64,000 nt of DNA from Candidatus Nanoarchaeia archaeon (GTDB lineage: Archaea > Nanobdellota > Nanobdellia > Jingweiarchaeales > Jingweiarchaeaceae): the NCBI GenBank assembly GCA_038874075.1, contig JAVZDD010000003.1, positions 25,488-89,487 on the forward strand, in the 5' to 3' direction. Below are positions 1-36,726 of the stretch, one piece after another. Under the pieces are notes generated by a model. The model searched no databases and was not told the DNA's origin. It saw nothing but the letters and a program-made list of their open reading frames with translations. Position numbers and translations under genes: made by a program. Numbering within the stretch: the first letter of the stretch is position 1; every line of letters starts with the position of its first letter.

Positions 1-3000
1 AGGTGTTGGACCGTAGTATGTTGTTTGATTCGCAAGTTGCCATTCTCCACCAGATTTCCTTATCCATAGATAAACAGTAACATTATCTCCATCAAAATTC
101 TTTACCTTTATTTCAAATGTGAATGTTGTCCCCCATTCACCAGAACCAGGAGTAATGCTCCACGAACCTTCAACAAATTCAGGCCTATGATTTATGTAAA
201 ATGCATTCTCATATGTTGAATTTTCATCTGCATAATAACTCTTACTACCATTCATCGTTAAGTTATGCCATCCCCAGTTCCAGTTCCAAGTATCACCACC
301 AAGTATTGTGGCTGTATAGTTACCATAACCTGTATCGGTTGCAAGATAAAATGCATTTTCACTTGGCACAGAGAAATAAACAGTAGCACCAGGAACTAGA
401 CCACAATTTGCATCGTCTGATAAATTACCTGAAAGAGGAATGTTATCGACACCCCTTTCAAATGCTGGATTGTTCTTTGGCCCAATTGGTTGATTTATCT
501 TAGGAGTGAATTCTGAAGTTATTGTAACATTGAAAATACTTGAGTTTGCATCTTTCCACTTCTGATCATTATACACTCCACCTTTCCACTTTTGCTTTCC
601 AACATTATAAACACATTTATTAACTCCAACTGGGAAGTATAGATAGAAGTGACCAGTAGAATTTGAATCACTACCTGGTATTCTTGGTCCCCATGAATTT
701 GGATCACTTGCATTCGTTGTTACCCAGAAACTTGTTTTTGCACCTGATGCACTTTGTCCCAAATCCAAATCAATTACTCTCAATATAAATGTCGTATTTT
801 CTGAGACCCTATTGAATGTTGTTTCATTTCCTGCGATGTATTCAATTGAAACATCATTTTTTTCTACCGTTATATTCAGTATCTTAGTATCGTTTCCCAA
901 ATCAACATCAGATTCATACACACTTTCGTTTACAAAGAACATAATTGACCAATTTCCTTGTTGTTGGTAATTGAATGTTGTAGTTCTCGTTGCAGTTCTA
1001 TTCGTACTACTGCTTCCTGAACTTGTACCGATTAGATGCCAGTCATCAGATACTGGATTGCCATTCGCATCTGTCAATTGTTTTTTATAGAAATAAACCA
1101 CGTCAGTATCCTCATCCGGATCGCTTACATTCACTGAAAGTATAAATGTCTCTCCCCACCCTCCAATCTGAGGAGTTACATTTGGGTAATATAGTTCTGG
1201 TTTTGTTTCTATCCAAAATGAATTGGATCCGTAGGTGGTATATGTAAGTGTGGTAATGTTTTCATTGTAATTTGTTTTGTTTGTTTTCATCGTTAGATTG
1301 TAAGCTTTTGGTGGCATTGAAGAGGTATTGAATGTACAATTGTAATGTCCGTCACCTTCACTTAAAACAGGTTCGCAAATGAAAAGCTCATTTGTTTTTA
1401 ATGATTTGGTTGTAAAGTTTACAGTTACTGGATCAATGATGACATTGCAGTCATCTGTAACATTTGCCCTTATTGTTACATTATCACCTCTTAAGAATTT
1501 TTCACCATCTGGTTGAATTACTGTATTAAACAAGCTCCCAATCACATTTACTGTGTAATTTTCAGTTGAATTTACTTCAACATAGCAAGCATCATTTGTT
1601 ACTCCACCTTTCCAATATTGCTTACCTACAGAATAACTACAATTCGGATCAAAATCAAGCGTAAGATAACCATTTGAATCCCCATTTATCACATAAGCAA
1701 AATTATAATTTTGTGAATCATTTGTGATCCAAATCGTTCCATTTGGATTTATCGCTGGTTGTGATCTGTTTAAGTCATAAATTCTTAATTTCAATTGTTG
1801 GCTAGCTCCATATCGATTTACGTTCGTGTTATTTCCAGCAATGTAGGTTACATTTACAATGTCTTTATGTAAAATTGGACCACTAGCGATCGTTGTGTTG
1901 ATTACATTTGTCGAATCATTTAATTCAAAGATGAAACTGTTTTCAGCCTGCAATAAGTAATCGTTGCATGTGAAGTCATTAACTGTAATCGAACAATTTC
2001 CTTTCCCATTTGTTACTGTGCTGCTTCCTTTATATATCCATTCACCCGTTGTGTTTACGTACAGCTTGCAAACAACAGTATCATTCTCAGGATCATCTAT
2101 TGTAACATTATATCTATACACATCACCAAATCCACCTTCACTTGGAGTAACAATTAAATTTGAATAATATGGATTGATATTCTCTAACCAAAAGCGATTC
2201 CAATAAATTGTGATATTATTATTATAGTAGTTCCTCGATGTTTCTATTCTAACACTATAATTTCCTTCTGGTTTATTTGTTGAATTCCAAGTACAATTGT
2301 ACCATCCATTTCCCTCGTTATTTATGTTTGTACATGAGTACTCATTACCAGTCTGATTATGTATTAATTTGATTGTAATAGATGAAACATCATTTATTAA
2401 GCCCTCATCGCTACAATCAGTTGATACATTGAATCTTATTGGAATTTGATCACTCACATTATAAACAAGTGAATCAGGTTTTTCCAAGTTATTCTTCAGC
2501 TGTCCATATAAGTAATAACTTTCCCAAGAAGTCATTTCTTTTGTTTCATAACAGTCTCCACCATTTATTGTTAATTTCCAATATTGCATTCCAGTACTAT
2601 AACTACAATTCGGATCAAAACCATAATAACTTATTCTACCATTCTCATCTGTTGTATTTGTATGATCAGAATCCCATACAGGAGTTGTGTTGTAGCTGAA
2701 ATTGAAATAACCATTTAATCCCTGAGGTACGGGTATCCCTTTATCCGTATCATTGATAAGAACAATAAATGTTCCGTAATTTATTCCCTCCCTATTTATG
2801 GTTATTCCAGAACCTTGTTCAACAATGAATGAAACATTGTCTTTTTGGAATGTAATATTGAAAATGCTTGATGTTTTAGTTAAATTATAGTTATCACTTG
2901 AATTGAATTTGAAATAAACAATCGGTCCGCTTTGTAAATCATTACATGTAAAAACAGGATAAAAGTTGAGTGTGTTCTCACTCAAACAATTCGTGCAATT

Positions 3001-6000
3001 TTTTGATTCCAAATATATCCATGGACCATTTTGGTTATATGCTTTCCATAGACTCACATTTACAACATCATCCGGATCGGAATCTTGAACTGATACATTC
3101 AATGTGAAATTGTATCCCCAACCCTCACTACTTGGATGAGCACCAGCACCGCTTAACTGTGATCTTGCTCTTAACTGGAACGCATTTATTTTCTCAACGA
3201 ATGTGCCATTATAGAAATTCTTTGAAACATTAAAGCTTACATTGTACCAACCTAATGGATCACCTGTTGTATCAAAAGTACATGTGTAATTTCCATTTCC
3301 TAAATCATTTGCATTGCAAGTATGATAGGAACTCCCATCTTGCATTACATTAAATTGTTTAATTGTTGCGCCACTTACACTTCCGCAATCATCGGAAACA
3401 TTTGCATTTACGATTAAAGATTCACCAACTGCAATTACTTCCCCATTGGGTTGGGTAATATTTGAATTTAGAACTGAGAGAATATTCACAAAATAAGCAG
3501 ATGAATTGTTTGCAAAGTAATAATCACTTTCAAATCCAATCTTCCAATATTGTAAATTGACCGCATAACTGCAACTTGGATTAAAGCTGAAGTTTAAGTA
3601 ATTTGAAACAGCACTTGTTGTACTGTCCAATATGTAATTGCTCTGATCAGTTGTAACATAGAGTTTTCCCGTAGGTCCTGATATACCCCTACCCGGCTCT
3701 ACAGCATCTATCACTTTAACAGAGAGTAATGTTACATTCGAGCCAATTCTTGAAACATTCGTGTTATTCCCAGCAATGTATTCAAAGTAAACATTTCTTT
3801 TTGTGATGTTGAAATAACCACCAAAACTTTCATTTGTTTGCCCGTATTTATCCGTAACATTGATTTTCCATTCATATTCTCCGATCTGTGATGAGCTGAA
3901 GCTCTCAGTAAATGTAACTCTTGTATTTATTGGATTTGTCACATTTTGAGAATCTTTTAATGTGAATGATGTATCAGAAATTTTCTTTACCCACAAACTC
4001 ACATTTACAACATCGTCCCTATCACTTACATTGCAATAAAAGTTTATGTTTACACCCCAAGGAACAGAAGATGGTGAAACATTTAGGCCGAATAAATTTG
4101 GAGGAACTTCGATAAACATCGCATTTGTGTATGTTGTTAAATTGCTATTGTAATTTTCAGTGTATGAGAACATCTTCACATCATACAAACCACCAGCAAG
4201 ATCTGTTGAATTCCAAGTACAATTGTAATAACCATCAGTATAATTATTTGCATAACATGCAAATGTTTCATAACCAATTCTTGAAACATTAAAGCTTACA
4301 TTACCATTACTTATTTTAATCCCACATTCATCCGTAACATTTGCTTCAAATGTTACATTTGAATATTGTTGATATACATTGTCCCCCCCAGGTTCTGTAT
4401 TTCCATTTGGTTCAATTAAGATATTATTTAACCATCCTTTTATTGTCAATGTGTAATTCTGAGTGCTATTCACATTCTTGTAACATGAGTTGTTTACTGT
4501 TCCAGCCTTCCAATATTGTTGACCCACAGAATAACTACAATTTGGTATGAAGCCATAATTTACATAACCATCAGAATTTGTAGTGTTTATACCACCATTA
4601 TCGAAATTTGATTGATCAAATGTTACCCAAAAGCTTACATTCACTCCGCTGAACACATAACTCTTATTATCAGTATCATTTATTCTAACACCAAGTAACG
4701 TGCTTTCACTTCTATTCACTTGTGAATTGTTTCCAAGTACATATTCAATGACCACATCATCCTTGTCTAATGTGAAGTCTATTCCAGCTCTGTCTGTTGT
4801 ATTATGCGCATCACTCGCATTAAACTTGAAATAAGCAGTTGGTATGTAGTCACATGTGAAACCTTTATAGTAGAATACTAATTCTTGCTCTGTCCCACAA
4901 TCATAACAAATCTGAGAACTTACGTACTGCCATGTTAAATTATCAGGAGATATCCATAAGCTTACATTTACATTTTCACCGTTTGCATCACTTACATTCA
5001 CTTTAAATGTGAAATTCTCACCCCATCCCCAATCTTGCTCCGGTAAAACGGTTTCATTTTTGAGAACAGGAGGTTGCCAAACTTGTACGATGTTAAATGC
5101 ATTATTTTTCGTGGAACTTCCATTATTGTAGAAATTTATATTACTTGCATTCATTTCAACATTATACCAACCTTGTACTGCATCAGTAGCATTCCAAGTA
5201 CAATTGTATGTTCCATTGCCTAGATCATTTATTTCATCACAGAAGTAATTTGTTCCTGGAAATGCAACACTTTTTATTGTGAAGTTCACATTTGCGCCAG
5301 CAAAGTAATGTAAGTTACATTCATCATACACGTCACCCGTTATGTTTATTGTCAAGTACTGCTCTCTCTGATATGTTTGACCATTTGGGAATGTGACGTT
5401 CGGCGTTAAGAAACCTTTTATTACCACATTGAAGGTATCTGAGTTCTTGTCTTTGTAACAAGAATCAGCAGAACTGTAAGCATACCAATTCCTATTTCCA
5501 GCTTCATAACTACAATTCGGAGCAAAATTATACTCTACATATCCACTTGAATTTGTCGTGTTCCAACCAGGAATGATATAAGTTGTACCGTTATGCACCT
5601 TAAACCATATTTTTGCTGCACCGTAGCTTGGATTGTATGCCGGAATGCCAGCATCCGTATCATTCACAAACAAGATAAATTTAGTTGGAGTACCACTTCT
5701 ATTCACTTGTGAATTGTTTCCAGCAATGTAGATAATATCAATGTCATCCTTTTCCAAAAGATGTGAACTTTCAGTTGTTTCAGCGTATGTATCTGGTTCT
5801 CCGGGCTCTGACGCATTGAACTTGTAATATTTAAGTGCAGCATCTTGGTAATCACTACAACTGTAATTTCTTGTAAAGTTTACGAGCGTATTGCTTGGAT
5901 TTTGGATATACTTACATTCAGTGATCTGATAATTCGAAGTTGCAGTCATTTTTTCTAAAAGACAAACATTCACATTTGCATAATGTGTAACAGTAACAGA

Positions 6001-8060
6001 GAAATTGAACGTCTCCCCCCATCCACCTGGATTTGGATTCACTTGTGCGGCACTTAAAACAACTGGGGTTCTGAGGAAAAATGCATTTGTTTTTAAATCA
6101 GTACCATTATTGTAATAATCATTCCAAGAATTCATTGTTACATTAAACCATCCACCACTAATCGCCTCAGATGAGTTCCAAGTACAATTATAATAACCAT
6201 TACCATCATAAGTTACATTCCCGACACCTTTACAGTAATAGACATTACTTCCAGATTGTATTTTGAATTCTATCCTGCTTTCTAAACCAGTCACAGGCTG
6301 ATTGCAATCGTCCAAAACTCTTCCTCTAAACGTAATATTTTCTCCCTTTGTGTAATTTGCTGATCCATCCGGTAGCACAATTTGATTTAAAAGATTACCA
6401 TAGATCTCAATGTAAAAGTTCTCTGTTTGATTGTCTTTATAACATGAGGCTCCGGAAACTGTTACATTCCAATATTTTTTACCAGGTGTATATGAGCAAT
6501 TTGGATTGAATTCACGGTAGTAATGTGTTTCATTCTTATACTCTTCATTTTCATTTTCCAACCAATACCCATTTGCTTTCACCCGGAAATGTACATTTGA
6601 AAGATCAATAACATTTGTATAATTGTTTGTTACTAAGTCCCATATTTGGACCGTAAGATTTACCTTATTATTTTCGCTTGAATCGCTCCTGTTCACTTGG
6701 CTATTGTTTCCACTTACATAATTAATCGAAATTGCTGATTTTGTTACATTGAAAGCAGTCTCAGATGTGGTTGCACTGAAACCAGTTACGCTACTTGCAT
6801 TGAATTTAAAGTACCAATTATCTATGTTGTCACAACTGAAGTTCTTTTGATAAGAATAATCGAAATTGTTACAATTTACACAGGAAGTTGAGTTCTCTAG
6901 GAACCAATTATAAGTTGTGTTCTTTAACCATAGCATGATTGTTACATTTTGATTGTCTTCGGATGTTACAATTAGAGAGAAATTGAATGGTTTTATTTCC
7001 CAGCTTCCTTCTGGATGGGGCTGGACTTGTGGATTAGTTAGACTAATATTACTCGCTAGGAAAAATGCATTTAAAATGTTCTTTGTTCCGTTCCAATATT
7101 TATTCCCATTTTCACCCTTACCAAATGCAATCATTGTGACATTGTACCAACCATATGGGAAACTCGAATTTGTTTCAATTTGACATGAGAAACCAGTTGT
7201 GGTTATACAAGTTCCATAAACATTTCCATTTTGCATCATTCTGAACTCTAAACCAAATTTGCTTGGATCAGTTTGTGTAACAGAACAATCATCGATCACG
7301 CTTCCAGAAAATGCAATTGTTTGTCCTCTAGTGAAGTTTTGATTGAACGATTGAATCGTTGAATTGCTTAAATCACCCATAAGCCAAAATAGAAGTGCAT
7401 TGTATGGTGATGGTTCGGTTAAATTGTTATTGTAATAACTTGAATCAATTGCTCCACCTTTCCAATAATTCTGCCCAAGATAAAAGTTATTTGCAGTTGG
7501 GCACCAATCACTTAATGTCATTGTTTGTGTCATGTAACCGCTCTCATTCACAACTGGTGATTGGGGATAATATGTCTTATAAGTTGTATTGCTTCCGAAT
7601 TGAGAAATTTGGATGAAACCTTTACCAAATTCTAGAAGTGTCGCAGGTGTTTGATTGTCACGATCATATATTTCTAATGTGAAATTGTAAGGTGTACTCC
7701 TGTTTATGTTTTCATTCCAGCTCGGAGTGATATTTATTACATCGATATCATCTTTCTCAACTTTAAAATTGTATCCACCAATTTCAGTACTACCATCAAC
7801 ATTGGTTGCATTGAATTTAAAGTACCAATTATCACTTATGTTAAGATGTGAGTAATCATAACTGAAATTGGCTTGCGTCCAGCTAGCACAATTTACACAT
7901 TCCCAACTCCCAATTAAATTGTAATCCTCTACTCCTTTTTTATGCCATGCATAAACAGTAACATTCCTACCGAATCTATCTTTGACCATCACAGAGAAAT
8001 TGAATTGTTCCCCCCATCCACCAGTTGTTAGAGATGGATTTCCATTTACGTAGAGCGTTG
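1..8060 (-). repeat. Tandem array of divergent coding modules of about 970 bp (about 320 aa) inside the giant ORF: 8 complete copies plus 1 partial copy that runs off the window
   Basis: Hand-translated motifs recur with a 950-1015 bp period. GGWGE-type motifs (TPQIGGWGETF, NPNPGGWGETF, TTGGWGEQFNF, SGEWGTTF, SEGGFGDVY) lie near 150, 1160, 2140, 3120, 4070, 5035, 6030, 7010 and 8015. PNCSY..G.QYWK motifs (DFDPNCSYSVGKQYWKGG, GFDPNCSYSTGMQYWK, FNPSCSYAVNLQYWK, FIPNCSYSVGQQYWKAG, FAPNCSYEAGNRNWY, FNPNCSYTPGKKYWN, NKCVYNVGKQKWKGG) lie near 615, 1635, 2605, 3570, 4535, 5505, 6495 and 7480. GNG.YNCTWN and KDD.I.Y.AGNNSQVNR also occur once per module. Confidence 0.85.
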
Positions 8061-11000
8061 CATTTTCCAAAAGTGGAGCATAACTATATTCTTTCACCTT
8101 CATGAACAAATGCTGGGTCTCATTAAACAAGAGTCCATATAACCAAGTGTAATAAATTTTTGTTATATTCGATGTTGTATTTGCACCATAAGTACCCGTT
8201 GCATAGGAATGTAAGTACAATGGGTGTTGCAATTGCCTGAATCTCCAACTTTGATCTTCGGTGAGGTTATATATTGTTTCGTATTCAAAGTAAATGCTTC
8301 CAAAAAAGTTTCTCTCAAAGAAAAGTGATTCTACATTATCATCAGTTTCAGTTTTTATTGAAAGTTCAGAAATTGTGAGATTTTCACCTGTCGCATTGAA
8401 TGTGAAGTTTATACCACCATTAATGATTCTCTGGTAATTTTTATTGGGTGATTGCAATGTGTGGTAGATTGTTTTATCACATGAGGCACCTGAGCAAACA
8501 TAGTTAGGATAGTCGGTATAATTTATTGTTCCCCTTGTATCTTTGATTGCGTATGGATTTAATACAATTCCACCTTCTGAACTGCAGTTTATTGTGAAAT
8601 TCAGATAAGTTGTATTCCTTACATTGAGGTTACTCAAATTCCATTCAATTGTTCTTGTGCTCGAATTCCAGCTTCCATTCCAAACTTGGGTTACATCACA
8701 AATTCCAGGAATTGGTAAATAAATCGTCCAATTGTTCGCTTGTGTGTCTCCAATGTTCCTCACGATTAAACTAGCATTATAAGTATAATTTGGTTGCAAA
8801 CTTCTCGGCTCATTCCAGGGAAAGTCAGGAAGCTGCCATAAAGCAAGATCGAATTCTATATGACTCTCATTTGTGTAATTTGCCGTTTGCAAATGATGGA
8901 ACTCATGCGGCTCATCCCAATCCACATTCTCATAGTTTAAATTCCACTTCATATTTCCTGTAGCTCCAATTGTCGTCGGAGCTTTTACTTGATAAGTAGC
9001 TACTCCATACTCATTCACATCAAAACCAGCAATTTGCCATATCACAAGATTGTTTTCCAAATCAACTGAGGAATTGAAATTCAATCCACCCAGCAAATTT
9101 GGATTTGCTGGTGTCCATCCAGGTTTTATCTCTTCTTTAAGTATCACATTTCCATTTATCGGTGCACATCCTTTGTTATGCAGTACTAGTGCACTTTCGA
9201 AAACACCATTCGGATAAACCCTTGTTGGTGTTTCCCTTATTACTTCGATCACAGAATGGTTTGCGTTACTCACATTCAATTGGTAAAGTTTAGTAATGTT
9301 GAACTCTAAAAACTCCTGCAAATAGGAAATCGAGACATTTATTGTTGCATTTTCTGCATTGTTAGGAGATGTGATGTTAAATTCAAACTTAATGTCCTCT
9401 GGTGTGAAAATGACATACTCTAAATAACCAGGCGATACATCCCAACCAGGAGGCACGCTCACACTTACATTTATTATTGTGTTTTCATCAGCATGGATCC
9501 CTTCTAATTCAACATTTAATGTTTCAGAAGTTCCGGGACACATTCTTGGATTGAGTGTTAGGTAAACTTGTTCAGGTATATTATAAAATCTCTCAAATCT
9601 GGTTGTCGAATTTCCATCGCTGAAATTCAAGGTTGTATTGACAACCAACATCTCGTGTGGCATATTCAGCGTGTTTACGAGAAATGTATAATTTATTAAG
9701 CTGTTTGGGGTCAAATTTAGATAAGTCGAATTTTCATAATAACTGACATTCCCATCCCAATTTGTTATGTTGATTGAAAGTAATGTGTCATTGTACCATT
9801 CATTGAATGGGTTTTTGATCGAAATGACCATATTAACCGTGTCATCACTTCTTAAATAAGTGACATCAGTTACTACGACTCTTTCTATCATGTAAATCGA
9901 TGCATTCACATAATCAATCATCAATGGCTCCGGACCATAATTTCGAAGTTGTAAGCCACAAGAACCATTGTTAAAAAGGCCAACATCCGGACCAAGTGGT
10001 CCAAGGGGCTTCATTGTGATATTTTCAGTCACAATCTGTGTGCTTGCAACCGTGAACCATTCTTTCTTTCCGTAGCCAATGATAACAGCATTGGCAGTAC
10101 CATTCAATGCTTCCCAGAAGATTTTTATGTCTGCTACTCTTGGCTCAATTGCACCACAATCCCATTCAAGCAATATACTTTCTCCAGGATCAACTTTTGC
10201 TTCAGCACTTTCATTATCAAAATCGTTACCAATCACCCCATCCAAAGAACAAACTTTGCTTGTAACATCTATCCCCTTTAATGTTAATCTGGCATTTGGA
10301 CACCCAAGATACTTATAACCCCAGACAATTGGATTCACATATTCTGTGTCATCATTACCTAATGAGTTATTTACATATATTGAAATACTAAAATTACCAT
10401 AAGTTGTTGCATTGATTGTCCATTTTACTTTCTTTAGTTCTCCAACCCCAATTGAACCAATATATTTAGTTCTATTATCTACCTGCCATTCTGAAGGGGC
10501 GTTCAATGTCACATAAACATCATTTGAAGTACTAACGAGGCTTGAAATCGTTGCATTTATTGTGAAGTTATTGTATTGGAATACTTCAATCGGAGAAAGC
10601 GCTTCTACGATTGTTGGTTGTGGTTCACAACCAGTTACGTCGATCGTTATTGTGAAATTCTCACTTATGTTACTATAGTAAGCACTGTCTTCACTAATCC
10701 ATGCAAACCATTTCTGGGCTCCTGGATTAAAATTACAATTTGGTGTGAATGTCACTGTTGCTATTCCATTTGTATCAGTTGTTGTTGAATTGACAAGATA
10801 ATTGTATATTCCATCATAACTCACATTGAAATAAACAGTCGTAGCGGGTGTCAAATTGTAAGTGTCAGCAATCAAATCCTTTACTCTTACTTTAAAAGTA
10901 GCTGCTTGTGTTAGATTCGCATAGCTATTGTTTCCAGAAACATATTCGATCGAAGTGTTATCTTTTTTGATTACAAAACTATCATAACCTGATGTTGATT

Positions 11001-14000
11001 CAGTAGCTAAACTGAACATGTAAAACCAAGTGCCAACATCTTGAGATGTAAAATTCTTGTACCAATACTTTGTTTGATTTATACAATCAGGATAACTACA
11101 ATTCAAAGGTGTTTGATTCACACAATCTGAGCACTCAGTGAAACCAGTCGGAGAACCCTTTGCTAATAATAATTTTACTTCATATGAATCTGTATCTCCA
11201 CTGCTTGATATAATAGAAAAATTCCAATTTTTATAACCCCAGCCTTGTGAGCTTGGAATCACACTTGGATTTTCCAATTTATAAATAGGGAAAAGATAGA
11301 ATAATCCAGGAGAAATTAATCTATAACTCACATTTGAATAGTAATAATTTGCTTCTGCGTACATCGTGGTATTGTACCATCCTTTTGGTGTGGTCACATT
11401 TGTATTCCAATCACAAGTATAAGCATTTGCACCTACTTGGCTTACTGGTGAGCACTCATAACCTGCTGTTGAATGATTCGCATAGAACTTTACATTTGTG
11501 CTTAATGGATCTCCGCAATCATCCGTTGTAGCACCTAAGAAAGGAATTTTTTGCTCCTGCGTATAATTCGTTGACCCATCTGGCTTTTGGAAATCCAAAT
11601 TTATATCTCCAGTTACAAGAATGCTTAAATTGTAGTAATTTTCCGTTGAATTGTCCTCATAGCATGCTTGTCCAGAAATTACAGCTTTCCATTTTTGATT
11701 TCCCACTTGGTATTTCGGAGAACATTTCGCCTGGAAATAGTAATTGGCATATGCGGATGAATTTGTTGTATTGCTCGTACCAACATCGTATATAGATCCA
11801 TCCAATGTTACATAGAAGGTAATCGGTAGATTTGTGATCAAAGTTCCATTTGCGTCTCTCACTCTTAATGCAAGTAATGTGGTCGTCTTTCCTCTTCTTG
11901 TTTCAGTGTTATTACCAATTACATCCTCAAAAATCGTCTTGTCTTTTGTTATCGTGAAAGTTTTCGTCGTTGAGTTCGTTGTTCCTGCATCATTCGTCGC
12001 ATTGAATTTCGCAAATACTGTTGAACCAATATCCTCACAATCTGGATCGAATTCGAATGTGAAATTTGTCCATTGTCCTGTCCCAGAGCCAGGTGCTTGA
12101 TATATCTGACAGTTTCCTACTTGTTTCCATGGTTCACTACCAGTCTTACTGAACCAGGCGCAAACGCTTACATTATTCTCGGAATTACTTACTCTTACAG
12201 TAATATTAAAAGTGAAATTGAATCCCCAAGCACCAGATGAACTTCCTGTTTCATTCGATACAATTGTTGCATTCTCCATTTCAATTGAGGCAGGAGGAGC
12301 TAGCACTTGTACATCTTTACAATTAAAAACAATCGTTGAGTTTTCAGTTGCATTTGCTTTTATGCAAAATGTATAAGTCCCTGGTGTTGTCCCAGATGTG
12401 TTAACAATGTAAGTGTAATCAGTATGTGCATTTCTTGATTGTAACGGACCTATTGTTCCAAGGTAAGTAAGATTACTAATTTCATTTGTGGAATTCCTAA
12501 CTTCAAATTTGCCTGTATAGTTTATCTCAACAATTACATTACTTGCATTGCCAGGACCAGCATTATAAATTGTTGATGAAATGTTGAAAACATCACCAGC
12601 ATATATCGTACTTGGTATTGTCGTTGGCTTTGAAACGTTTAATGAGGCACCACACGAAGCTGAGAAAATGTATGGTTTATTATAGTATATCAATGTTCCA
12701 TTTAAAGGTATTGCTTGGAATCTGAAAGTACCATTTGTTTGATATGTTACATTTAATGTGTAATTGTAATATTTTGAATAAGGCTTTCCATACGGAGATT
12801 GGAAATTTATATTATTGTCCCAGGTTATTTTTACTGAATCGTTTATCGTTGCAGGACTGCCTTCGCTTGACCATGTGTTTTGGAATATCAAATCTTGTGG
12901 ATGCGTTACAGTTAAATTTTCCTTATTTTCAGTAAAGTTGAAATTGCTTCCTGGCTGGTTTCCTTTGTTGAAAACTTGGAATGAAACATTGAAAGTACCG
13001 CACCCGAACGAGCTTGGAAAACCTATGAGCCACTGGGAAGAAGATGCATCATAATAATTTCTAATTGTTTTAATCCAAGGACCAAGAAGCGTTATTGTTC
13101 TCTTGTTTTTTGTCCACCACTCTCCCTTATTCCTTGCTGCTTCACCTAAGAGATTTTGATACCATGGTTTTCCTCCAGGTGCAAATTGAAGAATGCTTCC
13201 TATGGTTGTTTGTATGTTAGAAATCGTCACCAGACCACCTATCGTTGTTGATGTGGTGATGTAACCATTCGTAAATGCACCAAGTCTAGACCATCTAATC
13301 CACCAACCCTCATACATAGAACCTACTGGATAACCTGGATCAGGTGTATATCCACCACTAAAACTATCTCTACTTATATTGAAACCAGGAGGTATCCAAA
13401 GATCAATCACATACACATAACCAGCAGTTGCAGATCCTGTTCTTATCGCATATTGTATTGTTGCCGAGGAGCTCTCTCCAATTTCTGTAATGTTTAGGAA
13501 TGGATCAGGAGAACCGGAATGTCCCGTAGCAGCATTAGCAGAGATAAATGTGTCCGTTTTTGTGATCGTTTGTGAGCTCTGAGTAACGGGATCTACCCAA
13601 ACTACTTCTGTAACAAATTGACCATCTGCACTTGCCTCTTCTGGACCAACCCATTGGATTGTTGCATTGAAGCATGAAGATGTTGGTATTTCTCTATTTA
13701 ACCATTGAACTAGACTTGCAGTTATTGTATTCGCGCTTGGTCCTTCTATAATTGTTGGTGCTGTTGATGGTGATTGGCCAGAAGGATATACAGTAATATT
13801 AACTGTTAAGTTATAATCACCAAAATTACATACACTTAGTCTTTGGTAATTCCTACTACCACTATCACCTGTTCCTCTATTTGGATAAGTGGTAAATATG
13901 ATAAGTGGAGCAAGGTTGCCTTCTTCGGATTGATAAATATCAAATGTTTTTGTATAAGTAAGAGTTGGTCGATTAGTTTGATTTATTTCAACTTTTAAAG

Positions 14001-16404
14001 TATAAGTTTTTTGAGGAATATCCTCTGGAACTTCAAATCTCCAGGTTAAAATACTCTCATTCCAATATGGGATTGTACTCGTTGCTCCAATGGAAAATGG
14101 TTTAGTAGTGTTGTCCCAGAAAAACCAATCTAACTGTGTGTCACCATCCCACAAACTAACTGTAACATTTCCAGAAACACTCGCAGTGGTATTGTAATTC
14201 GCTAGAGGAACCGCGATGAAAGCAATATGTCCTCTTATTATTTTTTGGTCCTCACCAGTAGGAGAATAAATTTTTATATCTCTGACCAGGTTTGCATTTG
14301 TACAGTTTATTACTCTGACCGTAAGGATATTCGTATTTTCTCTGAATGCACCAGGATAAACAGATGAGGTTAACTTGAGCTTATATGTACCTGTTGCTGC
14401 GTCATTTGTGATGTTTAAAAGTCTTGTCTCGAAATAACACGCATCAGCTACACCATTTGTACAAGTTAAAGCAGCGTTACTTAATTCATTAGATACTGAA
14501 TGATCATTTGTATCCCCGCCCCAGTATGTCCAGCCAGCGTACGGTAAATTATTATATGTTGATGCACCTCCTGGAAGAAGTTGCAGTCTGAGAATCTGTG
14601 CTGACGATGCTGAGTCATAGGCAGCATCAACGACCTGTACGCTTACATTATAGTATTCTCCTCTACAAACAGTTAATGTATCCGTTATATTACTTGTGTC
14701 TCTCCATCTCCAAGTCCATTTTACATAATAATAGAAAATTGTATCAACTGCGATACTCCATGGTCTCACTTCTTCAAAGCTCTTAGCTTCTGAATCTTGT
14801 ATATAATCAATGTGTAATGGTCCAACTAAATAGAGCATCGGTGAGATTTGCGGCGTTTTATAAGTATATTCCAGAATTACATTATCAGATGGATTTTCAT
14901 ATTCCCATAAAATGAATTTTCCGCTTTCATTCTGTATTACGATTCCATTGGTTTGTGTTATTATGAAGTCATCCGGTATCGGTTCAATTATTTTAACACT
15001 TGAAGCGTTGAGATATGGTTTAATGTATATTTTCATTTTTGTTGGTGGCTCTGGATATATCACTGTCTCAGATTCCCGAAGTATATCGAACTCAACACTT
15101 TCACGAACCTCAAAGATTGTTTCATAATCAGCATCGACGTCTTCCCAAATAGCTCTTGCATAAATTTTGTAAATACCGATTTCTTCTGGATAATAAGTCA
15201 AGTTATAAGTTCCATCACCATTACTAATTATCCCATCATTTGTTGAGAATTCTTCTATTTTACCAGAAGGTGTTATTATTTTTAATGAAATGGAAGCATC
15301 AGGTACTCGATGACCATATTTATTTAGTACGCCAACTATTATCTTAGTTTCTTCACCTACTAAATAAATCGATTTTGGTGTGTTTATATTTACCAAGCCA
15401 ACGGAAAACTCACTCTCACTTAAAATTTTATCAAGAAGCATTAGTCTCAATTTGTATAAACCTGGTTTGAAATTTCTACTTGTATCTATCAAGAATTCTT
15501 TTCTTAATTCATTAAATCGAATCTGTGTTTCATTTCCTTCTGGATCAATTAGAATTACTCTTAATTTTCCGAGCCATTTTGTTATGTTTTCATTTGTTAA
15601 TATTTCAAAATTTATCTTTTCACCAATTTTAAAGGATTTTTTTGGCAGTTTAATTTCTATACGTTGTTCACCCACTTGTACCTGTTCCTGTTCTAAGATG
15701 CTCTGATTTTTGCTTATTTCTGTTGTTGTATCTTGCCCAGTTGCTAACCCATTCTGCGTTTCACTTAAAGAAATAAAATTTATATGTTCAATCGTAGAGA
15801 AGTTTTCGGTACTTGCAACAAATGTGTATTCACCACTTTCATTCCAATTGGCAGTTATTGTGAAATTGAAAGTATTTTCTGATAGATCCAGTTCTCTTTC
15901 AAACACACTCAAATTACTCGGAGAAATGATCTTTATTTTTATGATTGTTCCATTCGTTTCATTGACAATACCAAAAATAGTGAGATTTTCACCATAACTT
16001 AGATTAAGTTTATCTAAGATCACGATTTCCTGCCCACTTGATGGATTCAAGGCTTCACTAATATTAAGGATGCTGAATCCTGTAATACTTCCATTAAGAA
16101 CGATTAAAGATTCACTGAGCACAATTGCGCCAAAAATTAAAATCAATAAAAATTTTATTTGAGATCTCACCTGGGATTTTGCACTGAGCTTATTACTTTT
16201 GTAATTCATCTGTTCTTTCAAAAACCAAAGATGCCTGCCACTCGTGCTGATTCTATCAATCTTATCTTCTATCTGCATCTCTAGAAGTATTTCATGTACT
16301 CTATGCCAAGATATATTTAATTCCTCAGCAATTTCACCAGTACTTCTAGGGCTACTTCTTTTGAGAAGTTCCAGTATTTTTTCCTTGATTTCTTTATGAT
16401 TCAT
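1..16404 (-). CDS. Giant cell-surface protein, N-terminal 5468 codons (C-terminus lies beyond position 1): cytoplasmic wHTH-like domain, single TM helix, huge repetitive Ig-like ectodomain
   Basis: ATG at 16404-16402 with an in-frame TAG two codons upstream. Minus-strand codons fall on plus-strand triplets starting at positions 1, 4, 7 and so on. I found no tta/cta/tca in that register in any stretch checked by hand (1-660, 1601-1660, 2101-2160, 4721-4780, 5701-5760, 7981-8040, 12181-12360, 15121-15180, 16021-16404). The ORF track lists no complete minus-strand ORF between 714 and 16534, as expected if this frame never reaches a stop in the window. N-terminus: MNHKEIKEKILELLKRSSPRSTGEIAEELNISWHRVHEILLEMQIEDKIDRISTSGRHLWFLKEQMNYKSNKLSAKSQVRSQIKFLLILIFGAIVLSESLIVLNGSITGFSILNISEALNPSSGQEIV. 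Confidence 0.9.
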   Translation of the reverse strand, partial: MNHKEIKEKILELLKRSSPRSTGEIAEELNISWHRVHEILLEMQIEDKIDRISTSGRHLWFLKEQMNYKSNKLSAKSQVRSQIKFLLILIFGAIVLSESLIVLNGSITGFSILNISEALNPSSGQEIVILDKLNLSYGENLTIFGIVNETNGTIIKIKIISPSNLSVFERELDLSENTFNFTITANWNESGEYTFVASTENFSTIEHINFISLSETQNGLATGQDTTTEISKNQSILEQEQVQVGEQRIEIKLPKKSFKIGEKINFEILTNENITKWLGKLRVILIDPEGNETQIRFNELRKEFLIDTSRNFKPGLYKLRLMLLDKILSESEFSVGLVNINTPKSIYLVGEETKIIVGVLNKYGHRVPDASISLKIITPSGKIEEFSTNDGIISNGDGTYNLTYYPEEIGIYKIYARAIWEDVDADYETIFEVRESVEFDILRESETVIYPEPPTKMKIYIKPYLNASSVKIIEPIPDDFIITQTNGIVIQNESGKFILWEYENPSDNVILEYTYKTPQISPMLYLVGPLHIDYIQDSEAKSFEEVRPWSIAVDTIFYYYVKWTWRWRDTSNITDTLTVCRGEYYNVSVQVVDAAYDSASSAQILRLQLLPGGASTYNNLPYAGWTYWGGDTNDHSVSNELSNAALTCTNGVADACYFETRLLNITNDAATGTYKLKLTSSVYPGAFRENTNILTVRVINCTNANLVRDIKIYSPTGEDQKIIRGHIAFIAVPLANYNTTASVSGNVTVSLWDGDTQLDWFFWDNTTKPFSIGATSTIPYWNESILTWRFEVPEDIPQKTYTLKVEINQTNRPTLTYTKTFDIYQSEEGNLAPLIIFTTYPNRGTGDSGSRNYQRLSVCNFGDYNLTVNITVYPSGQSPSTAPTIIEGPSANTITASLVQWLNREIPTSSCFNATIQWVGPEEASADGQFVTEVVWVDPVTQSSQTITKTDTFISANAATGHSGSPDPFLNITEIGESSSATIQYAIRTGSATAGYVYVIDLWIPPGFNISRDSFSGGYTPDPGYPVGSMYEGWWIRWSRLGAFTNGYITTSTTIGGLVTISNIQTTIGSILQFAPGGKPWYQNLLGEAARNKGEWWTKNKRTITLLGPWIKTIRNYYDASSSQWLIGFPSSFGCGTFNVSFQVFNKGNQPGSNFNFTENKENLTVTHPQDLIFQNTWSSEGSPATINDSVKITWDNNINFQSPYGKPYSKYYNYTLNVTYQTNGTFRFQAIPLNGTLIYYNKPYIFSASCGASLNVSKPTTIPSTIYAGDVFNISSTIYNAGPGNASNVIVEINYTGKFEVRNSTNEISNLTYLGTIGPLQSRNAHTDYTYIVNTSGTTPGTYTFCIKANATENSTIVFNCKDVQVLAPPASIEMENATIVSNETGSSSGAWGFNFTFNITVRVSNSENNVSVCAWFSKTGSEPWKQVGNCQIYQAPGSGTGQWTNFTFEFDPDCEDIGSTVFAKFNATNDAGTTNSTTKTFTITKDKTIFEDVIGNNTETRRGKTTTLLALRVRDANGTLITNLPITFYVTLDGSIYDVGTSNTTNSSAYANYYFQAKCSPKYQVGNQKWKAVISGQACYEDNSTENYYNLSILVTGDINLDFQKPDGSTNYTQEQKIPFLGATTDDCGDPLSTNVKFYANHSTAGYECSPVSQVGANAYTCDWNTNVTTPKGWYNTTMYAEANYYYSNVSYRLISPGLFYLFPIYKLENPSVIPSSQGWGYKNWNFSIISSSGDTDSYEVKLLLAKGSPTGFTECSDCVNQTPLNCSYPDCINQTKYWYKNFTSQDVGTWFYMFSLATESTSGYDSFVIKKDNTSIEYVSGNNSYANLTQAATFKVRVKDLIADTYNLTPATTVYFNVSYDGIYNYLVNSTTTDTNGIATVTFTPNCNFNPGAQKWFAWISEDSAYYSNISENFTITIDVTGCEPQPTIVEALSPIEVFQYNNFTINATISSLVSTSNDVYVTLNAPSEWQVDNRTKYIGSIGVGELKKVKWTINATTYGNFSISIYVNNSLGNDDTEYVNPIVWGYKYLGCPNARLTLKGIDVTSKVCSLDGVIGNDFDNESAEAKVDPGESILLEWDCGAIEPRVADIKIFWEALNGTANAVIIGYGKKEWFTVASTQIVTENITMKPLGPLGPDVGLFNNGSCGLQLRNYGPEPLMIDYVNASIYMIERVVVTDVTYLRSDDTVNMVISIKNPFNEWYNDTLLSINITNWDGNVSYYENSTYLNLTPNSLINYTFLVNTLNMPHEMLVVNTTLNFSDGNSTTRFERFYNIPEQVYLTLNPRMCPGTSETLNVELEGIHADENTIINVSVSVPPGWDVSPGYLEYVIFTPEDIKFEFNITSPNNAENATINVSISYLQEFLEFNITKLYQLNVSNANHSVIEVIRETPTRVYPNGVFESALVLHNKGCAPINGNVILKEEIKPGWTPANPNLLGGLNFNSSVDLENNLVIWQIAGFDVNEYGVATYQVKAPTTIGATGNMKWNLNYENVDWDEPHEFHHLQTANYTNESHIEFDLALWQLPDFPWNEPRSLQPNYTYNASLIVRNIGDTQANNWTIYLPIPGICDVTQVWNGSWNSSTRTIEWNLSNLNVRNTTYLNFTINCSSEGGIVLNPYAIKDTRGTINYTDYPNYVCSGASCDKTIYHTLQSPNKNYQRIINGGINFTFNATGENLTISELSIKTETDDNVESLFFERNFFGSIYFEYETIYNLTEDQSWRFRQLQHPLYLHSYATGTYGANTTSNITKIYYTWLYGLLFNETQHLFMKVKEYSYAPLLENATLYVNGNPSLTTGGWGEQFNFSVMVKDRFGRNVTVYAWHKKGVEDYNLIGSWECVNCASWTQANFSYDYSHLNISDNWYFKFNATNVDGSTEIGGYNFKVEKDDIDVINITPSWNENINRSTPYNFTLEIYDRDNQTPATLLEFGKGFIQISQFGSNTTYKTYYPQSPVVNESGYMTQTMTLSDWCPTANNFYLGQNYWKGGAIDSSYYNNNLTEPSPYNALLFWLMGDLSNSTIQSFNQNFTRGQTIAFSGSVIDDCSVTQTDPSKFGLEFRMMQNGNVYGTCITTTGFSCQIETNSSFPYGWYNVTMIAFGKGENGNKYWNGTKNILNAFFLASNISLTNPQVQPHPEGSWEIKPFNFSLIVTSEDNQNVTIMLWLKNTTYNWFLENSTSCVNCNNFDYSYQKNFSCDNIDNWYFKFNASSVTGFSATTSETAFNVTKSAISINYVSGNNSQVNRSDSSENNKVNLTVQIWDLVTNNYTNVIDLSNVHFRVKANGYWLENENEEYKNETHYYREFNPNCSYTPGKKYWNVTVSGASCYKDNQTENFYIEIYGNLLNQIVLPDGSANYTKGENITFRGRVLDDCNQPVTGLESRIEFKIQSGSNVYYCKGVGNVTYDGNGYYNCTWNSSEAISGGWFNVTMNSWNDYYNNGTDLKTNAFFLRTPVVLSAAQVNPNPGGWGETFNFSVTVTHYANVNVCLLEKMTATSNYQITECKYIQNPSNTLVNFTRNYSCSDYQDAALKYYKFNASEPGEPDTYAETTESSHLLEKDDIDIIYIAGNNSQVNRSGTPTKFILFVNDTDAGIPAYNPSYGAAKIWFKVHNGTTYIIPGWNTTNSSGYVEYNFAPNCSYEAGNRNWYAYSSADSCYKDKNSDTFNVVIKGFLTPNVTFPNGQTYQREQYLTINITGDVYDECNLHYFAGANVNFTIKSVAFPGTNYFCDEINDLGNGTYNCTWNATDAVQGWYNVEMNASNINFYNNGSSTKNNAFNIVQVWQPPVLKNETVLPEQDWGWGENFTFKVNVSDANGENVNVSLWISPDNLTWQYVSSQICYDCGTEQELVFYYKGFTCDYIPTAYFKFNASDAHNTTDRAGIDFTLDKDDVVIEYVLGNNSQVNRSESTLLGVRINDTDNKSYVFSGVNVSFWVTFDQSNFDNGGINTTNSDGYVNYGFIPNCSYSVGQQYWKAGTVNNSCYKNVNSTQNYTLTIKGWLNNILIEPNGNTEPGGDNVYQQYSNVTFEANVTDECGIKISNGNVSFNVSRIGYETFACYANNYTDGYYNCTWNSTDLAGGLYDVKMFSYTENYNSNLTTYTNAMFIEVPPNLFGLNVSPSSVPWGVNINFYCNVSDRDDVVNVSLWVKKISDTSFTLKDSQNVTNPINTRVTFTESFSSSQIGEYEWKINVTDKYGQTNESFGGYFNITKRNVYFEYIAGNNTNVSRIGSNVTLLSVKVIDAVEPGRGISGPTGKLYVTTDQSNYILDSTTSAVSNYLNFSFNPSCSYAVNLQYWKIGFESDYYFANNSSAYFVNILSVLNSNITQPNGEVIAVGESLIVNANVSDDCGSVSGATIKQFNVMQDGSSYHTCNANDLGNGNYTCTFDTTGDPLGWYNVSFNVSKNFYNGTFVEKINAFQLRARSQLSGAGAHPSSEGWGYNFTLNVSVQDSDPDDVVNVSLWKAYNQNGPWIYLESKNCTNCLSENTLNFYPVFTCNDLQSGPIVYFKFNSSDNYNLTKTSSIFNITFQKDNVSFIVEQGSGITINREGINYGTFIVLINDTDKGIPVPQGLNGYFNFSYNTTPVWDSDHTNTTDENGRISYYGFDPNCSYSTGMQYWKLTINGGDCYETKEMTSWESYYLYGQLKNNLEKPDSLVYNVSDQIPIRFNVSTDCSDEGLINDVSSITIKLIHNQTGNEYSCTNINNEGNGWYNCTWNSTNKPEGNYSVRIETSRNYYNNNITIYWNRFWLENINPYYSNLIVTPSEGGFGDVYRYNVTIDDPENDTVVCKLYVNTTGEWIYKGSSTVTNGKGNCSITVNDFTCNDYLLQAENSFIFELNDSTNVINTTIASGPILHKDIVNVTYIAGNNTNVNRYGASQQLKLRIYDLNRSQPAINPNGTIWITNDSQNYNFAYVINGDSNGYLTLDFDPNCSYSVGKQYWKGGVTNDACYVEVNSTENYTVNVIGSLFNTVIQPDGEKFLRGDNVTIRANVTDDCNVIIDPVTVNFTTKSLKTNELFICEPVLSEGDGHYNCTFNTSSMPPKAYNLTMKTNKTNYNENITTLTYTTYGSNSFWIETKPELYYPNVTPQIGGWGETFILSVNVSDPDEDTDVVYFYKKQLTDANGNPVSDDWHLIGTSSGSSSTNRTATRTTTFNYQQQGNWSIMFFVNESVYESDVDLGNDTKILNITVEKNDVSIEYIAGNETTFNRVSENTTFILRVIDLDLGQSASGAKTSFWVTTNASDPNSWGPRIPGSDSNSTGHFYLYFPVGVNKCVYNVGKQKWKGGVYNDQKWKDANSSIFNVTITSEFTPKINQPIGPKNNPAFERGVDNIPLSGNLSDDANCGLVPGATVYFSVPSENAFYLATDTGYGNYTATILGGDTWNWNWGWHNLTMNGSKSYYADENSTYENAFYINHRPEFVEGSWSITPGSGEWGTTFTFEIKVKNFDGDNVTVYLWIRKSGGEWQLANQTTYYGPTP
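10560..12260 (-). repeat. Second block of the same module family (about 1.75 copies) in the giant ORF, separated from the main array by about 2.5 kb of non-repeat coding sequence
   Basis: Hand translation gives SSGAWGFNFTFNITVRVSN (about 12230), YFQAKCSPKYQVGNQKWKA (about 11700), SSQGWGYKNWN (about 11250) and VTFTPNCNFNPGAQKWFAW (about 10720). Spacing is again about 980 bp. Confidence 0.7.
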
Positions 16405-16488
16405 TAACTAGACCTTTTGCAGACTATCTGCTATAGGTCATTTTTCATTTTCCGTCCATCGTACGTAAAGTAATCTAAGAATTGGATT

Positions 16489-16496
16489 ATTTATAA
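16489..16496 (-). promoter_or_regulatory. TATA-box-like element (TTATAAAT on the minus strand) upstream of the giant ORF
   Basis: Plus strand atttataa. It lies about 88 nt upstream of the ATG at 16404 and 9 nt downstream (in the direction of transcription) of the 32-nt palindrome. No TSS data. Confidence 0.3.
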
Positions 16497-16504
16497 GCTT
16501 TTAC

Positions 16505-16536
16505 AAGTATTTGTACAAATATTTGTACAAATACTT
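16505..16536. promoter_or_regulatory. Perfect 32-nt palindrome (two tandem TTTGTACAAA cores); operator or terminator hairpin
   Basis: aagtatttgtacaaatatttgtacaaatactt. All 16 base pairs (16505/16536 through 16520/16521) verified as complementary. It overlaps the stop codon of the 727-aa gene and sits about 100 nt upstream of the giant ORF start. Confidence 0.6.
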
Positions 16537-18718: not shown

Positions 18719-18724
18719 CTTTGT

Positions 18725-19972: not shown

Positions 19973-20032
19973 TTTTTCTCACTGTAAGATAATTAAATTA
20001 ATTCATTTGGATATATAAAACTTAGAGATGGT

Positions 20033-22200: not shown

Positions 22201-22223
22201 TAAAACTAATTTAAAGATTTGCG

Positions 22224-22231
22224 TTTTATAA
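22224..22231 (-). promoter_or_regulatory. TATA-like box for the minus-strand operon (469-aa gene / MinD ...)
   Basis: Plus strand ttttataa. Its centre is about 27 nt upstream of the ATG at 22200, which is compatible with a leaderless archaeal transcript. Confidence 0.4.
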
Positions 22232-22285
22232 TTCTTTCTTTTTAAATCTTTTCCTGCATCTGTTTTTAAGTAAATCCGAAAGAGA

Positions 22286-22292
22286 TTTAAAT
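22286..22292 (+). promoter_or_regulatory. TATA-like box for the plus-strand six-gene operon
   Basis: TTTAAAT is centred 26 nt upstream of the ATG at 22315 (leaderless geometry). AGATTTAAA here is the inverted copy of TTTAAATCT at 22241-22249. Confidence 0.4.
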
Positions 22293-22314
22293 GATGAAAG
22301 TTTCTTATTAGAAC

Positions 22315-22866: not shown

Positions 22867-22904
22867 ATATTAAATATCAAAATTACCTAAGTTAAGAAAG
22901 CGAG

Positions 22905-30604: not shown

Positions 30605-33589
<2,985 letters not shown>

Positions 33590-36565: not shown

Positions 36566-36613
36566 GATTTTAACTCTACTTAATTTATGACATCATCCTT
36601 CTTAAATAATCTA

Positions 36614-36685: not shown

Positions 36686-36726
36686 ACGAATTAATTAATT
36701 TCTCTAAAATTATAAGTTTTGCTGAA

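Follow-up and report, generated by a model that had tools for sequence, protein, structure and literature searches.

The closest described counterparts of the gene considered here are the SPEARE proteins of nanohaloarchaea, which include SVXNc_0300 (9,409 amino acids, aa), BNXNv_0298 (8,880 aa) and the one from Ca. Nanohaloarchaeum antarcticus, the 9,409-aa protein having been termed the largest in cultivated archaea (PMC10266531). The layout of these proteins runs from a Sec signal through an immunoglobulin (Ig) domain, two WD40 propellers and about 75 Ig-like domains to a transmembrane (TM) helix, a VirB4/TraG-like ATPase and a coiled coil; the nanohaloarchaeal giants were implicated in host association, and a role in transfer, as a conduit, was proposed for them (PMC10266531). 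In a stretch of 64,000 nucleotides from the archaeal contig JAVZDD010000003.1, called the window below, the minus strand was found to carry the beginning of a gene of 12,055 codons whose product would be of comparable build. The best overall explanation, which we hold to be likely, is a membrane-anchored, glycosylated giant Ig-array surface protein, similar to SPEARE and serving attachment to a host.

An earlier note on this DNA, made from the letters, had claimed that the minus-strand frame from ATG 16404 stays open to base 1, that this giant open reading frame (ORF) is missing from the ORF track, and that its product already exceeds 600 kDa and is still incomplete at the window edge. Each of these claims held. 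Translation of the reverse complement of positions 1-16404, by which the frame was checked for in-frame stops, gave 5,468 codons and 0 stops, and the part of the protein encoded in the window has a mass of 613.9 kDa and a pI of 4.64. ATG 16404 is the first possible start, because the nearest upstream stop in frame, a TAG at 16410-16408, lies just before it. In the same interval the remaining five frames contain 282-548 stops each (5-10%), with a longest open run of 112 codons. From base composition, stops are expected at a frequency of 7.7% per codon, at which 5,468 open codons would occur by chance with P of about 1e-191; a chance ORF was thus ruled out. The absence from the track is explained by the ORF-listing program, which drops ORFs running off the end of the source, so that the seemingly empty quarter of the window is an artefact of the track.

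The locus is also covered, in whole or in part, by three further assemblies of what is essentially one organism. In GCA_025920735.1 (JAPDLF010000002.1, 210,996 bp), which is 99.946% identical with 0 indels over window positions 6535-28718, the gene from the same ATG is annotated as one uninterrupted product of 12,055 residues. GCA_025920645.1 (JAPDLI010000002.1, 159,298 bp), the source of the locus named L003, is 99.97% identical without indels, and two N-runs (L003 positions 9903-10000 and 15041-15139) cut the gene into products of 3,857, 1,679 and 6,495 aa. Together with 1 and 23 uncalled open codons these pieces sum exactly to 12,055, from which it follows that both N-gaps are essentially of zero length. 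At the first gap (window position 4835) the junction DYIPTA/YFKFNAS is in register with other copies of the repeat described below and falls in a region modelled with a pLDDT of about 95; the second gap lies 206 nt to the left of window position 1, and the repeat unit that spans it is complete (envelope 5413-5733, 277 bits). The adjacent gene, of 727 aa, is likewise split in GCA_025920645.1 (147 + 579 aa). Since N-runs of zero length split one gene in this way, the annotation of giant genes in such metagenome-assembled genomes (MAGs) is systematically fragmented. Through the window and L003 together, 8,836 of the 12,055 residues were read, the C-terminal 3,219 or so lying outside the read part.

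The possibility was weighed that several smaller paralogous surface-protein genes had been merged into one, as a chimera or through a collapsed or expanded repeat. Besides the two N-gaps, it could draw on the Logan and GCA_025920765.1 contigs, which end at or near the giant gene, on homologues elsewhere, nearly all of which are fragments of 2-5 kb, and on DNA repeats of 96-179 bp, 98-100% identical, which were found left of the window in L003. These repeats are confined to the distal part of the gene (gene coordinates 16,996-17,091 matching 19,960-20,055, and 19,963-20,141 matching 23,020-23,198), encode IELRSPSGVWESCTPVYDEGNGWYNCTWNS and recur across downstream repeat units, which suggests recent local duplication or gene conversion restricted to the distal half. 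In the window part of the gene, TRF found no tandem DNA repeats and self-blastn no DNA self-match at E<1e-10 within the first 16.4 kb, by which tandem-repeat collapse was ruled out there; with indel-free collinear assemblies in addition, mis-assembly of the window part is very unlikely. Three assemblies are collinear without indels and one of them calls an uninterrupted 12,055 aa, the piece lengths sum exactly and both gap junctions keep the repeat register, the repeat copies are just 25-40% identical in protein sequence, and two in three random chimeric joins would lose the frame. An artefact of this kind is therefore highly improbable, and the locus is, with strong confidence, a single genuine gene of 36 kb that encodes a surface-exposed Ig-array protein. 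Extrapolation from the mass of the window part puts the full product of 12,055 aa at about 1.35 MDa before glycosylation. Exact-pattern scans of genome contigs with window positions 1-50 and the far end of L003, and of metagenome contigs with the ends of L003 and of a further locus (L005), gave no match, and the 6,495-aa piece was not among the results of a homologue search with L003:22042-25038.

Two elements went beyond the earlier note, namely a winged-helix domain in residues 1-65, placed in the cytoplasm, and a three-domain super-repeat on which the chain is built. The N-terminal domain, a winged helix-turn-helix (wHTH), scored above the Pfam gathering threshold as an isolated query of 64 aa, for FaeA (PF04703; 24.3 versus 20.7) as well as HTH_24 (PF13412; 22.8 versus 21.9), and the same matches fell below threshold when the query was 1,000 aa long. 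HVO_A0114, HTH_11 and GntR were further winged-helix families matched; Trans_reg_C, of the OmpR/PhoB type, gave no match to this domain. With 22 homologues, AlphaFold2 (AF2) modelled the winged helix at a pLDDT of 95-98, and Foldseek related the model to MarR/ZitR, ArsR/CzrA, PapI and Z-alpha, the TM-scores reaching 0.9 on the small targets. The domain is followed by a K/R-rich stretch (aa 66-82) and then by the sole hydrophobic 19-mer among 5,468 aa, in the region of aa 76-104, with the first sequon (N104-G-S) right after it. Under the positive-inside rule, the K/R-rich flank indicates an N-in orientation, in which the winged helix would be cytoplasmic and all beyond residue 104 outside. Since a folded domain of 65 aa precedes the helix, the helix counts as a signal anchor instead of a terminal signal peptide, and the N-terminal Sec signal of SPEARE proteins is thus present here in a variant form.

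An exhaustive phmmer search with aa 1-130 against 1.84 billion representatives returned 46 relatives at E<1e-3. These comprise stand-alone proteins of 65-94 aa (P0074, P0075, P0082 and P0089), tandem arrays, and at least 12 proteins with a wHTH, a TM helix and an ectodomain. P0079, P0085 and P0091, which come from independent metagenomes (SRR3989344 and an NCBI TPA MAG), also share the ectodomain motifs LGLVNINT.KS.Y and FYYYVKW..RWRD…CRGEYYN downstream. When the first 600 aa were used in a word-based homologue search, a single match was returned, which has a different N-terminus; it was the exhaustive search that brought out the winged-helix family. It is improbable that the winged helix is missing from the mature giant protein, as it would be if translation started at Met66 (ATG 16209) with a cleavable signal peptide, or if signal peptidase cut after the TM helix and freed a small wHTH-TM peptide. 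In favour of this, the sequence from Met66, MNYKSNKLSAKSQVRSQIKFLLILIFGAIVLSES, resembles a standard Sec signal peptide, the winged helix has the stand-alone homologues just named, and other family members open with a plain signal peptide. Yet in the window, and likewise in two further assemblies that cover the gene start, the frame runs without a stop from the winged helix through Met66 and into the signal anchor, the same wHTH-TM fusion recurs in the 12 or more homologues from independent samples, and a Shine-Dalgarno (SD)-like AGGT stands before ATG 16404 only, no such tetramer being found before Met66. As a separate observation, winged-helix relatives occur as 5-7 tandem copies in proteins of 410-1,019 aa (P0073, P0076 and P0083), one tandem relative sitting on contigs of 2-2.6 Mb; these look like an uncharacterised multi-wHTH family.

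After the TM helix, more than 8,700 aa of the part read consist of beta-sandwich domains of Ig-like or macroglobulin (MG)-like type, mostly arranged in super-repeats. Self-comparison, alignments and a profile showed a super-repeat of about 325 aa; the window contains 10 complete copies and the beginning of an eleventh, out of 21 counted in the 8,836 aa. For one copy (aa 3781-4102, alignment of 40 sequences), AF2 gave a model of three all-beta sandwich domains with a pLDDT of 95.1 and a pTM of 0.84. Foldseek matched this model to macroglobulin-domain arrays (complement C5, A2ML1 and ECAM) and, at E of about 1e-8, to the adhesin extenders 6xi3, 4p99 and 5irb, so that the super-repeat, as modelled, is a generic Ig/MG-like architecture and no specific enzyme. 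The first non-repeated region (aa 105-1376) is common to P0072, P0079, P0085 and P0091, and in the second (aa 2030-2783) the CBM_2 and DUF11 matches stay below the Pfam threshold. The Pfam scan of aa 1-5468 also lists Big_1, below threshold, and Big_7. The NCBIfam scan of the window part gave nothing useful, PDB sequence searches with the non-repeated regions gave only weak filamin matches, and none of the Pfam, NCBIfam and PDB searches brought up a catalytic or lectin 'head' domain for the window part.

On composition, too, the earlier note was borne out. It had called the product rich in N-x-S/T sequons and in Cys pairs (NCSY, YNCTWN and DDC), as expected of an extracellular glycoprotein, and had proposed domain searches with Foldseek on predicted modules; these searches gave the Ig/MG-like beta-sandwich arrays, and the single N-terminal signal-anchor helix followed by such arrays supported an extracytoplasmic product. 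The window part has 293 sequons, where 1,000 shuffles gave 106.9 ± 8.9 and never more than 135, an enrichment of about 2.7-fold and about 21 SD above the mean. Their density is 5.4 per 100 aa, versus 0-0.6 in most ORFs of the window without signal peptide or TM segment, and the next 3,299 aa beyond the window hold 199 sequons at the same density. Most of the 87 Cys in the window part occupy conserved, paired repeat positions (PNCSY..CY, DDC and YNCTWN). Such a pattern points to N-glycosylation and disulfide stabilisation of the exported chain.

At its far end, the gene probably re-crosses the membrane to a HerA/VirB4-type ATPase, which the earlier note had not foreseen. The precomputed Pfam annotation of the last 6,495-aa piece lists Invasin_D3, Big_7, NPCBM_assoc and MG2, then DUF87 (E<=1e-5) and HerA_C. 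A homologous giant gene in a JGI contig, broken into pieces of 5,223, 98, 996, 1,575 and 2,799 aa, also ends with DUF87. In a further homologue, on the JGI contig L010, the terminal piece passes from beta-sandwich domains through a TM helix (aa 275-303) and a basic stretch to an ATPase and a terminal coiled coil. The ATPase, with the Walker A motif AAGGTGSGKS and the Walker B motif MVWDEVH, scores above threshold for DUF87 (40.7 bits), HerA_C (27 bits) and T4SS-DNA_transf (20.4 bits), and FtsK_SpoIIIE is matched too. The full architecture would then consist of a wHTH inside, a TM helix, about 100 beta-sandwich domains outside, a second TM helix, and a HerA/VirB4-type ATPase inside with a coiled coil, both termini being cytoplasmic in a double-ended arrangement like that of SPEARE; there is good reason to expect that this layout is right.

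The window itself holds archaeal 23S and 16S rRNA genes, an archaeal RNase P RNA and five tRNAs, in line with the archaeal source assumed in the earlier note. The adjacent 727-aa protein belongs to a 90%-identity cluster with a member named Ca. Jingweiarchaeum tengchongense, and also Ca. Parvarchaeota archaeon, in NCBI, and the small-genome lineage that had been surmised is thereby a DPANN one, reconstructed from Tengchong hot springs (PMC10134863). The words giant, adhesin and surface protein are absent from that paper (PMC10134863), a 2026 survey of Nanobdellota makes no mention of giant genes, and no mention of the assembly accessions was found in the searchable literature; the gene is already deposited as hypothetical protein(s), with no description in that literature. 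Among about 70 homologues of the super-repeat (P0002-P0063 among them), nearly all are partial hypothetical proteins that span whole contigs of 2-5 kb, and the named ones are all 'hypothetical protein' entries from MAGs, mostly Aenigmarchaeota. Many of the contigs sit in bins named Peribacteraceae, Zixibacteria, Chloroflexi, Deltaproteobacteria, Thermoprotei, Thorarchaeota and others, and the repeat-bearing fragments in such bins are probably mis-binned DPANN DNA. As to full-length relatives, CP070809.1 gave only a gap-flanked fragment of 1,373 aa, and three further contigs (L006, L007 and L008) hold broken pieces without an informative end.

With SPEARE proteins the locus shares a giant single ORF, here of 12,055 aa, in a reduced-genome DPANN symbiont, an N-terminal export signal, a bulk of tandem Ig-like domains of about 100 aa, and presumed host contact. 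A C-terminal TM helix, VirB4/HerA-type ATPase and coiled coil would be shared as well, as judged here from the precomputed annotation and the reading of L010. It differs in that the source is the thermophilic Jingweiarchaeales, of another lineage and habitat, the protein is longer, the Cys-bearing super-repeat of about 325 aa comprises three domains, and a folded winged helix stands ahead of the signal anchor.

Several points weigh against the reading as a double-anchored, SPEARE-like protein for host attachment. The likeness to SPEARE is one of domain architecture as described in PMC10266531 rather than of compared sequences, and no WD40 or PQQ propellers were found in aa 1-5468 by Pfam and NCBIfam at E<=0.1; such propellers are described for SVXNc_0300 (PMC10266531) and may not be what defines SPEARE proteins. 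A second TM helix and an ATPase would be features of this gene on the evidence of a precomputed family list and of homologues, and in L010 the ATPase piece was called as an ORF of its own, on a contig rich in frameshifts, its fusion to the repeats being assumed. The public assemblies are short-read MAGs, one of which has two scaffold gaps inside the gene. Other family members, such as P0060 and P0072, lack the winged helix and open instead with an ordinary signal peptide or different TM segments, so that the domain is the mark of a sub-family and neither universal in nor essential to the repeat family. A start at Met66 may yield a classical signal peptide and an isoform without the winged helix. 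Finally, host contact as the function is argued by analogy, and the balance inclines towards it by a modest degree.

Table 1. Positions, in window coordinates, of the giant gene, its parts and nearby elements
Feature	Position	Strand	Remark
Giant gene, first 5,468 codons (45% of 12,055)	1-16404	-	Remainder left of window
Winged helix-turn-helix, aa 1-65	16210-16404	-	H1-H2-H3 and beta-hairpin wing; conserved S-W-H motif opening helix 3
Transmembrane signal-anchor helix, aa 76-104 (hydrophobic core about aa 83-103)	16093-16179	-	Hydropathy and AF2 helix
Non-repeated ectodomain, aa 105-1376 (about 1,270 aa)	12277-16092	-	Beta-sandwich domains
Filamin/MG2-like domain, aa 341-415	15160-15384	-	Pfam Filamin 30.8 bits (gathering threshold 26.9); MG2 and YtkA sub-threshold
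Super-repeat copies 1-2, aa 1377-2029	10318-12276	-	hmmsearch envelopes 1377-1705 (265.9 bits) and 1709-2029 (108.8 bits)
Second non-repeated region, aa 2030-2783	8056-10317	-	NPCBM_assoc/NEW3; CBM_2/DUF11-like matches
NPCBM_assoc (NEW3) domain, aa about 2290-2355	9340-9537	-	Pfam 36.7 bits (gathering threshold 24.4)
Super-repeat array, aa 2784-5468	1-8055	-	8 complete copies and first 56 aa of a ninth
First scaffold gap of GCA_025920645.1 (98 N)	4834-4836		Flanks join directly in window, no insert
Upstream region	16405-16536	-	SD-like tetramer, TATA-like box, palindrome
SD-like AGGT (putative)	16415-16412	-	7 nt before ATG 16404; complementary to 16S 3' end GGATCACCTCC
TATA-like TTATAAATA (putative)	16496-16488	-	Sequence
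Perfect 32-nt palindrome AAGTATTTGTACAAATATTTGTACAAATACTT (halves AAGTATTTGTACAAAT and ATTTGTACAAATACTT)	16505-16536		Between stop of 727-aa gene and TATA-like box
LamG protein in surface-gene island	18725-19972
ParA/MinD-like ATPase in surface-gene island	20033-20794

Upstream of the gene, the AGGT, the TATA-like box and the palindrome are assigned their putative roles from sequence, the palindrome being a circumstantial lead. Within the 64 kb its core TTTGTACAAA is confined to this site, with 2 copies where 0.32 are expected; a count of 2 was reached in 4 of 100 shuffles. The palindrome may be an operator for the gene's own dimeric winged helix, or a terminator hairpin.

Bacterial fibrillar or RTX adhesins (MpIBP of 1.5 MDa, 4p99/5irb; the large adhesion protein extender 6xi3; the LapA and SiiE types) are likewise megadalton fibres built from tens to about 100 tandem beta-sandwich extenders, and the extender-like fold of the modelled super-repeat would be a structural resemblance to these. 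They are characterised by C-terminus-first type I secretion, an N-terminal plug, Ca2+-stiffening and RTX repeats. The giant protein, in contrast, is archaeal and anchored by a Sec-type signal, would carry N-glycans and disulfides, and has a cytoplasmic domain at one end and probably at both; Pfam found no RTX/HemolysinCabind match in aa 1-5468. An RTX adhesin was ruled out by the termini, with a winged helix and TM anchor at the N-terminus and DUF87/HerA annotated at the C-terminus. The first 110 residues recall the ToxR/CadC regulators, in that a cytoplasmic winged helix is joined through a single TM helix to an extracytoplasmic part, but the domain falls outside the OmpR/PhoB type, matching FaeA/PapI, HTH_24, MarR and ArsR best; the 'sensor' here would be a fibre of about 12,000 aa, and DNA binding is putative. 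To the FtsK/HerA/VirB4/VirD4 translocases the likeness lies in the C-terminal module of the family, which as read in L010 matches DUF87, HerA_C, T4SS-DNA_transf and FtsK_SpoIIIE with Walker A and B. FtsK pairs its motor with a winged-helix DNA-recognition (gamma) domain, whereas the motor here would be tethered to a giant ectodomain about 12,000 residues from the winged helix.

Halomucin of Haloquadratum walsbyi (9,159 aa) is another very large secreted archaeal glycoprotein. Its sequence is of the mucin type, built from low-complexity repeats, and its supposed role is protection from desiccation; it is not known to have a TM-anchored winged helix, an ATPase or a super-repeat of folded Ig-like domains, and S-layer proteins are generally far smaller than 12,055 aa. 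Both differences count against a passive envelope, sheath or protective coat of the S-layer or halomucin kind, which would be no host-contact device. Such a coat would accord with the heavy glycosylation predicted, the acidic pI and the repetitive folded domains, with a window part in which no ligand-binding 'head' could be recognised, and with life in hot springs, which favours a robust coat (PMC10134863). A coat protein would have no evident use for a winged helix inside the cell at its N-terminus or for a C-terminal P-loop ATPase, and the architecture parallels that of proteins implicated in the association of nanohaloarchaea with their hosts (PMC10266531). The coat was rejected on architecture, and we consider it a rather unlikely account.

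In the mechanism that we favour for the membrane-anchored attachment protein, the TM helix would act as an N-in signal anchor, so that the winged helix would stay in the cytoplasm and the remainder would be exported through Sec. The exported chain, N-glycosylated and stabilised by disulfides, would form a fibre hundreds of nanometres long. The far end would re-enter the membrane and end, as in SPEARE, in a cytoplasmic P-loop ATPase of the HerA/VirB4/FtsK type, with both termini in the cytoplasm and the ectodomain forming a giant double-anchored loop. Its most likely role would be attachment to, and possibly exchange with, a host cell that this reduced-genome archaeon would need; the host-interaction role suggested in the earlier note would follow in the same way, by analogy with the nanohaloarchaeal giant proteins (PMC10266531). 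The cytoplasmic winged helix, perhaps with the 32-nt palindrome, might link DNA binding or transcription to the state of the fibre.

The ATPase also bears on a reading that places transport first, in which the protein would be a conduit or 'straw' similar to type IV secretion, driven by its C-terminal VirB4/VirD4/HerA-type ATPase and moving protein or DNA between symbiont and host. This would be compatible with adhesion. The DUF87 and HerA_C matches on the last piece of the gene, the T4SS-DNA_transf, FtsK and HerA matches with intact Walker A and B motifs in L010, and a winged helix of DNA-binding type on the same polypeptide all fit a conduit, which was proposed for the nanohaloarchaeal giants (PMC10266531). 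A string of beta-sandwich domains, however, offers no evident channel, no other components of a type IV secretion system (T4SS) were seen among the window genes, and the ATPase of this gene is known from annotation and homologues, the idea being a proposal even in nanohaloarchaea; a conduit as the primary function is thus unlikely, if somewhat less so than a coat. As unlikely as a coat is a cell-to-cell bridge with both ends in the symbiont cytoplasm, where the DNA-binding winged helix and the FtsK/HerA/VirD4-type motor would jointly handle DNA at the membrane (uptake from the host or transfer to it, FtsK-like) or report the mechanical engagement of the extracellular loop, of about 100 domains, to transcription via the palindrome.

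Next to the giant gene lies a surface-gene island (16535-28559) of ten consecutive ORFs with signal peptides and/or C-terminal TM anchors, except for a ParA/MinD-like ATPase; a ParA-like gene, 35% identical, adjoins the homologous giant gene in L010. Several surface proteins end with a TM helix and a cytoplasmic coiled-coil tail (window 20791-22200 and 40397-43690; L010 9902-10171). The tails share the motif S...Y.E[LI]K.K...RL..LE, which is also present in MG2 proteins of about 1,100 aa (P0066-P0071), and a 469-aa ORF is about 30% identical to the C-terminal 300 aa of the latter; this common tail may serve docking or sorting. A candidate for a further large Cys-rich surface glycoprotein is the 1,097-aa ORF at 40397-43690 (minus strand), which lies between housekeeping genes and the 16S rRNA gene; it begins with a signal peptide and has a TM helix at its C-terminus, its Cys content is 4.2%, and it carries 3.8 sequons per 100 aa. 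The 23S (30612-33582) and 16S (37702-39218) genes are unlinked, with a 780-aa ORF (33830-36172), tRNA-Ala (36613-36686) and a 284-aa ORF intervening, and the RNase P RNA (29837-30123) directly adjoins the 23S gene. ARAGORN gave tRNA-Leu(aag) (52531-52629, minus strand) a length of 99 nt, above the normal size of class II tRNAs, which suggests a short intron.

DPANN archaea are host-dependent and their contact molecules are largely unknown, the SPEARE proteins of halophilic nanohaloarchaea being the sole candidates described. An architecture comparable to SPEARE, with the ATPase predicted here, would extend this kind of protein to the thermophilic and distant Jingweiarchaeales and, through fragmentary relatives, to MAGs annotated as Aenigmarchaeota, and its 12,055 aa exceed the record of 9,409 aa for cultivated archaea (PMC10266531). 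The locus shows why giant genes get shattered in metagenome assemblies and are apparently mis-binned, and the super-repeat provides a concrete, well-modelled unit for structural work. The new element is the cytoplasmic winged helix of DNA-binding type fused to a signal anchor, which makes it testable whether DNA binding or gene regulation is connected to a surface fibre. If the bridge with both ends in the symbiont cytoplasm were true, it would represent a previously undescribed coupling of a megadalton adhesin to nucleic-acid transactions in archaea.

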